Assembly (NCBI RefSeq): GCF_044324875.1
Contig: NZ_CP172185.1
Reading direction: 5' to 3' (one strand)
Length of the DNA stretch: 64,000 nt
From: Escherichia coli
GTDB lineage: Bacteria > Pseudomonadota > Gammaproteobacteria > Enterobacterales > Enterobacteriaceae
Of this stretch, positions 34,301 to 37,300 are shown in pieces (position 1 is the first letter of the stretch; each line of letters begins with the position of its first letter). Made by a program: the position numbers.

Positions 34301-37300
34301 CCCACATGCCCGAGCAGCGGAGAAGCAGCCTGCGCTACGGCGGTATCGGCATATTTTTCTAACTCTAATGCCGATACATCGCTAAGCAAAACCAGCGCCA
34401 GCGAGATATAAAGCAACGTGGTAACGCCAATCGCCACCAGAAACGCCCGTGGCATAATGACCTGCGGATCTTTCACTTTATCCGCCGCGTTCGCCATCAT
34501 GCCAAAGCCCGCATAGGCAAGGAAGGTTATCCCGATACAGGAGAAGAACGCACCGGAGCTGGGGGGCGCAGAGACGGAAATATGCGCCGGTTGCAGCGAC
34601 CAGACACCGGCAATAATCAGCAATAACAGAATCATCATTTTAATGCCGACGAGGATCACTTCCAGCCGCCCTACCGCATGGTTGCTTAAGGAGTTGAAAA
34701 GCGTCATCACCGCAATGATTCCCAACGCGTAGAGCAAAATAAGGTGCTCCTCCTGGCTGCCTTCATGCAAAAACTGCACGGCATAAGCGCCAAAAGCACG
34801 GGCGACCATGGCGATGCTCACCGCCAGCGTCAACAGGTACAGTAACGAGAGCGCCAGCGAAAAGACGCCGTTGCCTAATCCGCGACGAAAGAAGTCGATA
34901 ATACCGCCATTGCTGGGATAGCTCGCCCCCAGGCGCGCATAGGCATAACCGGAAAACATCGCCACAATACCGCCAAAAGCAAAGGCGACCCAGGTCGAGG
35001 CTTCCATTAGCAACGCAGCCTGCCCCAGCAGCGCGAAGATCCCCGCCCCCACCATTGCCCCAATACCGATGGAAACGACGTTCCATAGACCGAGGGGTTT
35101 GTTATCGTTATTACCTTCCGTGTTCATCATGATCAGCCCTTAAACACGTTATAGCCGAGTTGCTTAGCGACCGATGCCACCATTTTTTGACCGCGAACAC
35201 TGTTGCCTTCTTCGTCCAGCGGTGGTGAGAACGCGGCAATTCCCATCACGCCAGGGACGACCGCCAGAATACCGCCACCTACACCGCTTTTGCCCGGTAA
35301 ACCAACGCGATACGCCCAGTCACCGGAGCGACCATACAGCCCTTCCATCATCATTTCAGCCAGAATGTACGGCACGTTGTCGGCCTGAAGAACGCGTTTA
35401 TGCGTCAGCGGATTCACACCACCCGCCGCCAGCGTCGCGCCAAGCGTTGCCAGTTCAACAGTATTGATGAGCGTGGAGCACTGACGGGTGTACACGTCAC
35501 AGGCTTCCATTGCATCACAATAGAGATATCCGGCGGAGTACAGCAGCCAGGCAATGGCCCGGTTATGGAAGTTGGTTGTTTGTTCCGACTGGTTTACTTC
35601 GTCAGAGAGCGCTACCTGCTCACCAGCCAGTTGTTGTTGGATATGTAAAATTCGCTGCCAGCGTTGTTCGGCATTTTCAGCGTTAATCAGGCTGGTGGTG
35701 GCAATAGCGCCAGCATTTACCAGTGGCGACAGCGGTTTGCCGCCATGCAACTCTAAGGCGATAACTGAGTTAAAGGGCAATCCGGTCGGGTCAGCGCCAA
35801 CTTTGTCCTGTACCGCCTGCGGGCCGACATCTTCTAACGCAAGGGCTAACGTACAGACTTTCGAGATGGATTCCAGCGCAAAGCGGTAATCACTCTCACC
35901 CGCGCGATAGATGTTGCCATCGCTGGTCACGATAGCCACTGCCGCCAGTTGACCAGGTACATTCGCCAGAAAGGGAATGTAGTCGGCATTTTGTCCGCCG
36001 TTAAGTGAGTGAAATTGGGTGTAAGCCTGATCCACTGCCTGCTGTAATTTGTTTGCATCTAACATCTTTTGTTAACTCCTTTTTATAGATGCGGGAGGTA
36101 ATTCCTCACCCCGGTGCCGATTTTCAGGCATCCTGATTTAACTTAGCACCCGCAACTTAACTACAGGAAAACAAAGAGATAAATGTCTAATCCTGATGCA
36201 AATCGAGCCGATTTTTTAATCTTTACGGACTTTTACCCGCCTGGTTTATTAATTTCTTGACCTTCCCCTTGCTGGGGACAAAGAACTGCGTGGTGTAAAA
36301 TAACACCACGCAATATCAATAAGTTACATAACCACTTTAACTCTCTACCTCCCTTTTTCCTCAAAATGTGGACACTCAATGGACATATCACATAGCGGAT
36401 TATGCATCACAGCATCGCTTAAATAATCCGGCGAAAAATGCGCATAAGTCATTGTCTGAGATATATCTGCATGACCGAGGATTTTTTGAAGAGAAATAAT
36501 ATTCCCCCCATTCATCATAAAATGGGTGGCAAATGTATGCCTCAATACATGAACCGCTTGACCGTCCGGCAAATTAGGCTTAGCCACCTTCAGTTTCAGC
36601 CTAAACCATTTATAACTCACCCGAAATAAACGCCCCTCCTTGCGATGTTTTACAAGCCTAACAACATCATCAGAAACAGGAACAACCCGACGCTTATTAT
36701 TTTTTGTGAAATTAAATACAACCTTATTACCGATAATATGTTCCCCCATTAGCTGATATGCTTCATTCCAGCGACAGCCTGTAGACAACAAAAGGACAGC
36801 CATTCGGTAATAATCTCCCGAACCCTTGCAGATAGAAAGAAACGCACCAATCTCTTCATGATTAAGATAAGCCATCTCTGGGGTTTTTTCCTTGAGGCGA
36901 GGAAGCGACAATACAGGGTTACTACCGTGATATTCACCAATCTCTGCCATAGCCTTTAACGCAGCGCTAAACGCAAAAAGATCATGGTTGATTGTAGATG
37001 CCTTAACCCCTTGATCGAGACGGCGCGATCTATATTCAGCAACCATGCGTTCATCAATCTCGTACATCATAGGGTCACCCATATCAAGACAAATACACTG
37101 GAGGTTATTCAGTCTACGATTCGCGTAATCCTTGTGACGACCTATCAGTAACCACCACGTCGCAATGAAATCGCTTAAATATCGCTTGTCCAGAAGATTA
37201 CCGAAAACATCAACAGAAGGGCGATCAGCAAGAACTTCGCGTTCAAATGCTACAGCCAGATTTTTTTTCTCAAACTTCCGACGAATGCGCCTTCCCTTAC

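Follow-up and report, generated by a model that had tools for sequence, protein, structure and literature searches.

A P2-like prophage attL between glsA and int in Escherichia coli, probably seated at the CueR-controlled copA promoter

The host–prophage junction and the genes around it

The window analysed here, a 64,000-nt stretch of an Escherichia coli genome, contains the host gene glsA (glutaminase A; positions 35133–36065, minus strand), a 310-amino-acid open reading frame annotated as glsA in every matching genome, followed by the integrase gene of a prophage. The listed reading frames place the glsA start at 36065 and the int stop at 36345, and the 279-bp gap between them (36066–36344), from which an original prediction had set out, therefore has the coordinates that it had given. 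That prediction placed the left attachment site of the prophage in this gap. When the window is set against 5,426 complete E. coli genomes, host sequence gives way to phage sequence at 36275|36276, which leaves 210 bp of host DNA upstream of glsA and 69 bp between the junction and the int stop; 17 of these genomes carry the glsA–int junction, which bears out the predicted location. The suggested comparison with the empty glsA upstream region gave the same position: among the matches listed, from 5,422 matching E. coli genomes, prophage-free genomes align with the window only up to 36275, and the glsA–copA spacer is uninterrupted in 5,402 of the 5,422; in three E. coli genomes its interruption is not accounted for by this integrase family. 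K-12-like sequence thus stops 69 bp short of the int stop; had it run right up to that stop, this would have spoken for an attachment site elsewhere.

The prophage body (36276–64000) is P2-like (Peduoviridae) and runs past the end of the window within the tail genes. It is ~99% identical to prophages in five complete genomes, in which RefSeq annotates P2-type replication, portal, terminase, capsid, baseplate, tail and ogr genes; these prophages, together with the PHROG assignments of Int and C, show P2-like gene content and order (C, A, Q, P, O, N, M ... D, ogr). The int reading frame spans 36345–37388 on the minus strand, and RefSeq homologues begin at 37358, giving a P2-family tyrosine integrase of 337 amino acids (36345–37358). 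The protein matches the Pfam families Int_N (2.2e-25) and Phage_integrase (3.1e-19) as well as PHROG 1 (integrase), and is 47% identical to P2 Int in a full-length, collinear alignment in which the R, HxxR and Y motifs coincide; the segments STGCRWNEA, HVLRHTFATHF and TYAHF align with the P2 catalytic motifs.

Upstream of int lies a gene for a C-like immunity repressor of 99 amino acids (37428–37727, minus strand; PHROG 147, transcriptional regulator, E = 3.6e-32), which matches P2 C in position and size; in P2, C is co-transcribed with int. A Pe-like early promoter, TTGACA-17-TATAGT (37721–37749, plus strand), is tentatively assigned from an 11/12 match in a consensus scan, and it overlaps the start of the C gene as in P2, where the Pe −35 element lies inside the 5′ end of C. 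The first early gene (37840–38340, plus strand; 166 amino acids) is a candidate Cox-like excisionase/repressor. Its product has no Pfam match of its own but is 43% identical to that of an Enterobacter prophage gene with a weak Phage_Cox match, and its similarity to P2 Cox, a protein of 91 amino acids, is weak (24% over 78 amino acids, E = 0.003).

The phage-derived part of attL, from the core to the int stop (36276–36344), has no match in empty-site genomes, and five lysogens carry it without a difference. In position it corresponds to the Cox-binding region of the P′ arm of P2; Cox sites are annotated between the core and the int stop in the P2 record (NC_001895). Within it, downstream of int, lies a conserved hairpin (36285–36314, minus strand), detected both as a terminator-like match and as an inverted repeat. 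The stem comprises 10 perfect base pairs (36287–36296/36303–36312) and can be extended to 12, and an 81-nt stretch containing it folds with −25.1 kcal/mol (z = −3.3). A 79%-identical variant (variant 2) preserves the hairpin, with a compensatory change of a U–A pair to C–G. In variant 1 its tail, UCUUUGUCCCC, is a weak U-tract; the tails in variant 2 and in Enterobacter are not rich in U. It is probably a weak terminator or insulator of the C–int transcript, the terminator role being uncertain. Apart from the hairpin, the interval holds no meaningful internal repeat, and an Rfam search of positions 35900–38500 returned only sub-threshold chance matches. Inside the 3′ end of int, two P′ arm-type Int-binding repeats, TGGACAC-N4-TGGACAT (TGGACACTCAATGGACAT; 36369–36386, plus strand), align with the sequence TGTGGACACTGTGTGGACACT, which the P2 record annotates as the Int P′ arm; the pattern has a single match in the window, where none is expected.

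An att core in the copA promoter

The att core, an identity block of 20 bp with the sequence cTTGACCTTCCCCTTGCTGG (36256–36275, plus strand), is defined by the end of empty-site homology and by its recurrence at attR in lysogens. The original prediction had considered the core repeat unidentifiable without attR; empty-site genomes and related lysogens suffice to fix it. The block contains the −35 hexamer of the copA promoter (PcopA), TTGACC (36257–36262), the left half-site of the CueR operator, CCTTCC (36261–36266), the 7-nt centre of the operator and the GG with which the right half-site begins, so that the junction falls 2 nt into that half-site. The empty site of K-12 reads TTGACCTTCCCCTTGCTGGAAGGTTTAACCT and lies 52 bp ahead of the copA ATG. 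In the CueR-dependent copA promoter, a MerR-family promoter, the CueR box CCTTCC-N7-GGAAGG sits in a 19-bp spacer (PMC8169799, PMC1526738), and the same TTGACC, CCTTCC-N7-GGAAGG and TAACCT (PMC8169799) are found at attB and attR. The attL copy, in contrast, keeps TTGACC and CCTTCC-CCTTGCT and continues with GGGGAC in place of the right half-site and AGAACT in place of the −10 element; the full CueR dyad between TTGACC and TAACCT is absent from the attL of the window and present only at attB or attR of other genomes. Because phage DNA replaces the right half-site and the −10 element, the attL copy should be a dead half-promoter that neither fires nor binds a CueR dimer.

A search with a 19-nt core found no second copy in the 64-kb window, even with three mismatches allowed; attR therefore lies outside the window, as had been supposed. 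In five lysogens with ~99% identical prophages, the second copy lies 34.6–35.8 kb from the first, a spacing that predicts attR of the source genome ~7 kb (7–8 kb) beyond position 64000, where it would be expected to read ...TGGACACTACGTGGACACT-N38-TTGACCTTCCCCTTGCTGGAAGGTTTAACCT, followed by copA. The evidence on attR comes from related lysogens, the window being identical to none of the five complete genomes examined. The core block recurs at attR in L001, L003, L005, L006 and L007 (variant 1), and in the variant-2 lysogen L004 a 28-bp block is common to both ends. The core thus stands at both prophage ends in six lysogens and occurs once in K-12 and in the 5,402 empty-site genomes. In all six lysogens, the core at attR is fused to host AAGGTT-TAACCT, which regenerates PcopA exactly, and the sequence is that of wild-type PcopA from −36 onward. 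The P-arm Int repeat pair, ATGGACACTACGTGGACACT, is found at attR of related lysogens and aligns with the corresponding annotated arm of P2, and a near-consensus IHF motif in the P arm, aATCAGactgTTA, read from the sequence, serves as a hint only.

Relatives in other genera mark the same nucleotide. In Enterobacter and Yersinia enterocolitica, Int relatives (65–66% identity) adjoin cueR, and their junction, too, directly follows ...TGG, a position that empty sites in Enterobacter bear out. There is no glsA at these loci, which points to PcopA, rather than glsA, as the integration target. Diverged lineages (82% and 65% Int identity) use one site. On the phage side, the bases that follow the junction are different in each of the four lineages (GGAC, TTTT, TGGG and TAAG), so that sequence comparison gives no hold for placing the overlap region or the inverted repeat that Int would bind at the core. 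We place the crossover, by inference, within the 20-bp block 36256–36275.

Several other Int relatives proved not to use the site. E. coli P0017 and Citrobacter P0020 lie at other loci, in elements that encode a Toprim-type primase and an Ogr/Delta protein and are read as P4-like satellites; the relatives from Salmonella (P0035) and Erwinia (P0051) are likewise found elsewhere, and a CueR-box half-site is absent from their surroundings. Among the matches listed for deposited phage genomes, Int identity reaches 53% at most (Yersinia phage vB_YenM_42.18), one further phage record outside those matches falling in the 60–80% band; the ends of the vB_YenM_42.18 record carry a different core without a CueR box. 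An Int-based search for related loci in genome contigs confirmed none, and our literature search found no relevant description of a prophage or att site at copA, glsA, ybaS or cueR.

Taken together, we consider it very likely that the interval contains the int-proximal attachment site (attL, B-O-P′) of a ~35-kb P2-like prophage inserted at PcopA, with the promoter rebuilt at attR. In the mechanism that we propose, Int would recombine a P2-type attP with the upstream half of the copA promoter (−35 element, CueR left half-site and operator centre), of which the phage would bring its own 20-bp copy (28 bp in the second lineage). At attR, phage-supplied TTGACCTTCCCCTTGCTGG would join host AAGGTT-TAACCT, rebuilding the CueR-controlled copA promoter base for base; at attL, a half-promoter would be left beside the phage P′ arm, the hairpin and the two Int arm-type repeats in the 3′ end of int. 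copA would keep CueR control and be parted from the CpxR box that it otherwise shares with glsA.

Regulatory consequences for glsA and copA

The regulatory consequences drawn here for both genes are deduced from the arrangement of sites. The original prediction noted that attL and the glsA promoter share the 279-bp interval and that integration may have altered glsA–ybaT expression. The element hit is, however, that of PcopA: the 52 bp removed correspond to the PcopA −10 element and the copA leader, and Int relatives insert at the same site in the absence of glsA. glsA retains 210 bp of native upstream DNA, which holds the known and predicted glsA sites. One is the intact host equivalent of a GadW/GadX (RpoS-associated) ChIP-exo footprint at the ybaST (glsA) promoter (36107–36140). 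glsA starts at 511641 in NC_000913.3, and we take the offset between genome versions to be 776 bp, which puts the GadW/GadX peak 42–75 bp upstream of the glsA ATG. The peak itself was mapped to 510790–510823, its centre 11.5 bp from the transcription start site (PMC4918353 supplement). The other is a CpxR box, GTAAAagtccGTAAA (36222–36236, minus strand), which stays on the glsA side here and which, in empty-site strains, the divergent promoters of glsA and copA have in common; it has a PSSM score of 16.68 and lies at −91 from copA and −157 from glsA (PMC9600279 supplement). With these control sites inside the retained 210 bp, a direct effect of integration on glsA–ybaT is unlikely. The sole plausible route to glsA would be indirect: because int and the repressor gene share the orientation of glsA, a lysogenic C–int transcript points towards glsA and could read through the weak-terminator-like hairpin, whose U-tract is poor. 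Yet a hairpin of 10–12 bp is conserved between int and the core and would limit such read-through. On balance, altered glsA–ybaT expression is unlikely.

Damage to copA regulation, in which the split CueR operator would make lysogens copper-sensitive or copA constitutive, is slightly harder still to credit. attL does hold only half an operator, interrupted within the right half-site, and integration moves the shared CpxR box ~35 kb away from copA, to whose expression CpxR contributes (PMC11005409; 2.06-fold, PMC9600279). At attR, however, the −35 element, the whole CCTTCC-N7-GGAAGG box, the 19-bp spacer and the −10 element are wild type in six of six lysogens, the differences are confined to DNA upstream of −36, and the P arm is preceded by a rho-independent terminator. 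We predict that copA loses just the upstream CpxR box and keeps CueR control.

Activity of the phage, significance and relation to known systems

Free phage was sought in several collections. The contiguous attP and the phage side of attL had no match in IMG/VR, the arm-plus-core pattern had none in species-representative genomes and metagenome contigs, and no free-phage or circular attP was found in IMG/VR, phage records or metagenome contigs. The attP is therefore a reconstruction, and activity of the phage is putative. These searches, together with the pseudogenes (tape measure, baseplate) or large deletions of some relatives, such as L004, would suit a decayed, immobile remnant whose shared 20-bp block is a historical scar. 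We think this improbable: the int, replication, portal, terminase and capsid reading frames of the window are intact, as are their RefSeq homologues by annotation, and diverged lineages (82% and 65% Int identity) occupy the same site. Near-identical prophages (~99%) are found in four countries, in chicken and human isolates that are unrelated and differ in flanking background, which implies recent independent integrations at the same nucleotide.

A prophage seated at PcopA, as we read the locus, would turn a vaguely probable attL into an exact map of core, junction and arm sites with a predicted attR and attP, and would correct the annotation of the gene at stake from glsA to copA. A small P2-family integrase clade (Escherichia, Enterobacter and Yersinia) would target and repair a sigma-70 promoter with a MerR-type operator, a clean example of a target choice that follows a deeply conserved regulatory sequence and not a gene end. 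One may even speculate that the operator is more to the phage than a conserved landing pad: CueR occupies and sharply bends or under-twists exactly the DNA that Int must bind and cut (attB, attR), and copper status, through CueR as a barrier or host bending factor, could therefore gate integration or excision of the lineage. In Enterobacter and Yersinia, insertion also swaps the native cueR upstream region for the phage C–int transcription unit, which on this speculation could place the copper regulator itself under prophage control. We give these ideas very little credence, but the site offers a tractable system for asking if site-specific recombination is hindered by a transcription factor already bound there. 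In practical terms the impact is modest: the prophage is present in only 17 of 5,426 complete E. coli genomes.

The element is an ordinary P2-type attL with an attB for which our literature search found no description. Phage P2 (Peduovirus P2, NC_001895) shares the gene order ogr, attP, int and C, then Pe/Pc and early genes, and the reconstructed attP aligns with the annotated order of P2 attP (ogr terminator, P arm, IHF, core, Cox sites, int stop and P′ arm; NC_001895). In both, a terminator is followed by a pair of Int arm repeats, an A/T-rich region of IHF type that contains an inverted repeat, and the core; ~70 bp further on comes the int stop, with a second pair of arm repeats inside the 3′ end of int. 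They share the arm motif TGGACAC and its 11-bp phasing. They differ in the size of the first early gene product and, above all, in the core: that of P2, AAAAAATAAGCCCGTGTAAGGGAGATT, is unrelated to TTGACCTTCCCCTTGCTGG of the window phage, whose target is the copA promoter and CueR operator and not the core annotated in the P2 record.

Phages such as P4, P22 and 21/e14 (at icd) insert in tRNA or conserved genes and carry a replacement of the displaced part. As in those phages, the identity block here extends in one direction from the crossover, one of the two junctions restores host function, and strong purifying selection acts on the target across many genera. Whereas they restore the end of a coding or RNA gene, such as the 3′ end of a tRNA, what this phage would restore belongs to a sigma-70 promoter: its −35 element and one half of its MerR-type operator. 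Prophages that show ‘active lysogeny’, such as Listeria phi10403S in comK, likewise sit in a regulatory or functional host locus, and the host gene stays inactive until excision. Unlike in active lysogeny, the host promoter is regenerated here, and no switch is needed or indicated.

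Position and structure of the attachment site

The intact 310-aa glsA open reading frame (ORF; 35133–36065, minus strand), which is followed by ybaT (33838–35130), is separated from the next upstream gene, int (36345–37388, minus strand, 347 aa), by 279 bp (36066–36344). The ORF coordinates thus give the distance that had been noted, and the proposal that this gap holds a prophage attachment site was borne out by a host/phage junction within it. A megablast search of 5,426 complete E. coli genomes with 35900–36600 matched 5,422 of them, and all prophage-free matches listed stop at query position 376, corresponding to 36275. 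K-12 homology likewise ends here, 52 bp ahead of the copA start codon, instead of running up to int, which would have spoken against the proposal. The junction therefore lies at 36275|36276, which leaves 210 bp of the gap next to the glsA ATG and 69 bp next to the int stop codon. Occupancy is low: the same glsA–int junction, matched over the full query, is present in 17 of the 5,426 genomes, and in the reverse test the K-12 glsA–copA spacer was unbroken in 5,402 of 5,422. Searches of one-genome-per-species representatives and metagenome contigs returned no matches.

The original prediction held that the core repeat could not be identified without attR, the far prophage end, which it placed outside the window. 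The latter is correct, as the core occurs once in the window even when three mismatches are allowed; the former is not, as empty sites and related lysogens fix the core. The K-12 empty site reads ...attaatttcTTGACCTTCCCCTTGCTGGaaggtttaacct...copA, the attL in the window reads ...attaatttcTTGACCTTCCCCTTGCTGGggacaaagaactg..., and the far prophage end in strains Ch1, LH50-c, CM2, CS5L and 24A16CRGN010, which carries a second copy of the core, reads ...ctgttaaaatgcTTGACCTTCCCCTTGCTGGaaggtttaacct...copA. From this comparison, the direct repeat is the 20-bp cTTGACCTTCCCCTTGCTGG (36256–36275). These five genomes match the window at roughly 99% over the prophage but differ in their flanks, and none is identical to it, so the attR of the window genome is inferred rather than read. 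Because attL and attR are 34.6–35.8 kb apart in these relatives, it should lie roughly 7 kb beyond position 64000. A second prophage lineage (variant 2, as opposed to the window-type variant 1) accounts for 12 of the 17 occupied genomes, with int identities of 79% at the DNA and 82% at the protein level. In H1827/12, the one member examined, the repeat is 28 bp, consisting of ATTAATTTC and the same 19 bp, with the right boundary unchanged.

Several further features of the locus were observed. The glsA–copA spacer is broken in 20 genomes, compared with the 17 that carry this integrase family. In the human-derived lysogen 24A16CRGN010 (locus L006, 1158–2090), the attL-adjacent glsA has been annotated as a pseudogene, with a stop codon inside it. 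Between ybaT and cueR lies a type I secretion island (7667–33500, minus strand), comprising cueR (7667–8074), an HlyD-type MFP (8071–9246), an ABC exporter (9243–11405), an unbroken 6,875-aa ORF with N-terminal BapA_N and Ig-like domains (11409–32036) and a TolC-like OEP (32145–33500). The syntenic RTX-like locus is frameshifted in EAEC 042 and O157:H7 (PMC2808357), whereas that in the window is intact.

The copA promoter as the integration target

The E. coli copA promoter (PcopA) has a TTGACC −35 element and a TAACCT −10 element 19 bp apart, with the CueR box CCTTCC-N7-GGAAGG in the spacer (PMC8169799; PMC1526738, which gives ACCTTCCC-N5-TGGAAGGT). The att core corresponds exactly to the −35 hexamer and, in the CueR box, everything from the left half-site through the 7-nt centre to the second G of the right half-site. 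At attR, this phage-borne copy is fused to the host AAGG-TT-TAACCT, and in each of the six lysogens examined the promoter is wild type from −36 onward. In attL, TTGACC and CCTTCC-CCTTGCT are followed by GGGGAC and AGAACT at the right half-site and −10 positions, respectively, leaving a half operator without a usable −10 element. The left edge of the variant 1 identity block lies one base past the −35 hexamer, as would be expected if the block were maintained to restore the promoter.

A protein search placed the Int relatives in three groups, with 81–84% (E. coli), 65–66% (Enterobacter, Yersinia, Kosakonia, Citrobacter and E. coli) and 58–61% identity (Salmonella, Yersinia, Erwinia and others). 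In the Enterobacter (P0007) and Yersinia enterocolitica (P0009) relatives, 86 bp separate int from the downstream cueR, after which come ybbJ and qmcA homologues; in these genera copA and cueR are divergent, with no glsA between them. The Enterobacter junction reads cueR-...cccccTTGACCTTCCCCTTGATGG|tggg..., its empty-site counterpart TTGACCTTCCCCTTGATGGAAGGTTTAACCT, and the Yersinia junction ...TTGACCTTCCCCTTGCTGG|taag.... The break thus falls at the same CueR-box nucleotide in four Int lineages from three genera, whatever gene adjoins, and the integration target is PcopA, not glsA. The original reading holds in part: attL does lie in this interval, but the site itself belongs to the copA promoter and CueR operator, not to glsA regulation.

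Other relatives are located elsewhere, with no CueR half-site nearby. Those in E. coli (P0017) and Citrobacter (P0020) belong to putative P4-like satellites that encode an Ogr/Delta protein and a primase of the Toprim type; the Salmonella relative (P0035) adjoins an MFS-transporter/nitrate-reductase fragment and the Erwinia one (P0051) a chorismate-binding enzyme gene. Evidently, members of the Int family have changed target site, as is usual for P2-like integrases. Among the matches listed from deposited phage genomes, Int identity was at most 53%, one record in the 60–80% band falling outside that list, and Yersinia phage vB_YenM_42.18, the closest phage to the Enterobacter relative, has a different core. 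Open-access papers on prophages, attB or P2-like phages at copA, glsA, ybaS or cueR yielded nothing relevant; within that literature the target is apparently undescribed, and an earlier description elsewhere is possible.

Predicted effects on glsA, copA and cueR

The GadW/GadX ChIP-exo peak for ybaST spans 510790–510823, its centre 11.5 bp from the TSS (PMC4918353 supplement). In NC_000913.3, glsA starts at 511641. The genome versions presumably differ by 776 bp; with this offset applied, the peak lies 42–75 bp upstream of the glsA ATG, at 36107–36140. A perfect CpxR box, GTAAAagtccGTAAA (36222–36236), is listed in PMC9600279 as common to copA (−91) and glsA (−157); on Cpx activation, glsA is strongly repressed and copA induced 2.06-fold (PMC9600279), and cpx mutants show lower copA expression (PMC11005409). 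Both the peak and the box stay on the glsA side of the prophage, so glsA would retain every mapped control site, and copA would keep its core promoter and CueR operator but be separated from the CpxR box by roughly 35 kb.

Between the core and the int stop codon lies a hairpin (36285–36314) with perfect 10-bp arms (36287–36296 and 36303–36312), and, on the int strand, a scan scored it as terminator-like. Folding of the 81 nt that include it gives −25.1 kcal/mol (z = −3.3), and variant 2 keeps it with a compensatory U-A to C-G change. As its tail is only weakly U-rich in variant 1 and not U-rich in variant 2 or Enterobacter, the hairpin is at most a probable terminator. The sole route to an effect on glsA would appear to be a co-oriented C–int transcript, from the immunity repressor gene C, that reads through past this hairpin. 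On the other side, transcription from the phage would be expected to stop at the terminator ahead of the P arm and so spare copA. A speculative and unlikely possibility is that CueR or copper interacts functionally with recombination at this site; a similarly speculative one is that the phage controls cueR in genera in which the two genes, int and cueR, adjoin. In the Enterobacter and Yersinia loci (L009, 5023–5110; L021, 4023–4110), int is co-oriented with cueR 86 bp upstream, and the phage P′ arm, with a hairpin lacking a U-tract, replaces the native cueR upstream region; cueR may be transcribed from the phage C–int unit in these lysogens.

A P2-type prophage and attachment site

The int product contains Pfam Int_N and Phage_integrase domains and matches PHROG 1. 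P2-like genes follow to its right, named from the annotation of the roughly 99% identical prophages in five complete E. coli genomes: those for a C-type repressor of 99 aa (PHROG 147), replication endonuclease, portal, terminase, scaffold, capsid, baseplate, tail fibre and tail tube/sheath. The first early gene (37840–38340, 166 aa) is a weak Cox candidate, and the prophage leaves the window within the tail genes. An accessory cluster, variable in content among related lysogens, occupies 44746–47893 between replication gene A and the portal gene. It includes an HVO_A0114 HTH ORF paired with an ORF called DUF6516 in homologues and without a Pfam match of its own in the window (45293–46050, plus strand), an HTH ORF whose homologues annotate an adjoining RelE-family toxin (46086–46460, minus strand) and a 234-aa ORF without a Pfam match (47189–47893). 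Outside the window, the ogr–attR spacer of a related lysogen (L001, minus strand, around 7300–6000) holds three or four repeated modules, each with a 'cagtagattaacc' motif ahead of the terminator-like hairpin ttttgcccgccggaaagcgggcattttttt that ends it; the other strand carries a small ORF of 73 aa.

The window Int is 47% identical to P2 Int over its full length, and the Arg, His-x-x-Arg and Tyr motifs of the two line up. In the P2 GenBank record, attP runs from the ogr terminator through the Int P arm, IHF site, core, Cox sites and int stop codon to the P′ arm, which lies within the int 3′ end. Joining the phage sides of attR and attL through the core gave a reconstructed attP that aligned collinearly with that of P2. 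In it, a rho-independent terminator (aaaagcccacaacgtcaggattgcgggcttttttt) is followed by P-arm repeats (ATGGACACTACGTGGACACT) and then by A/T-rich DNA that contains an 8-bp inverted repeat and a near-consensus IHF motif. Beyond the core come 69 bp of phage DNA, the int stop codon and P′ repeats (TGGACACTCAATGGACAT, 36369–36386). The P′ repeat pattern has one match in the window, with zero expected by chance, and shares its motif and 11-bp phasing with the P2 P′ arm, TGTGGACACTGTGTGGACACT. Every P2-family feature that sequence comparison can assess was present, and the predicted mechanism is that of a standard P2-family Int/attP system; what is new is the site used in the host, a sigma-70 promoter bearing a MerR-type operator, which a phage-borne copy restores.
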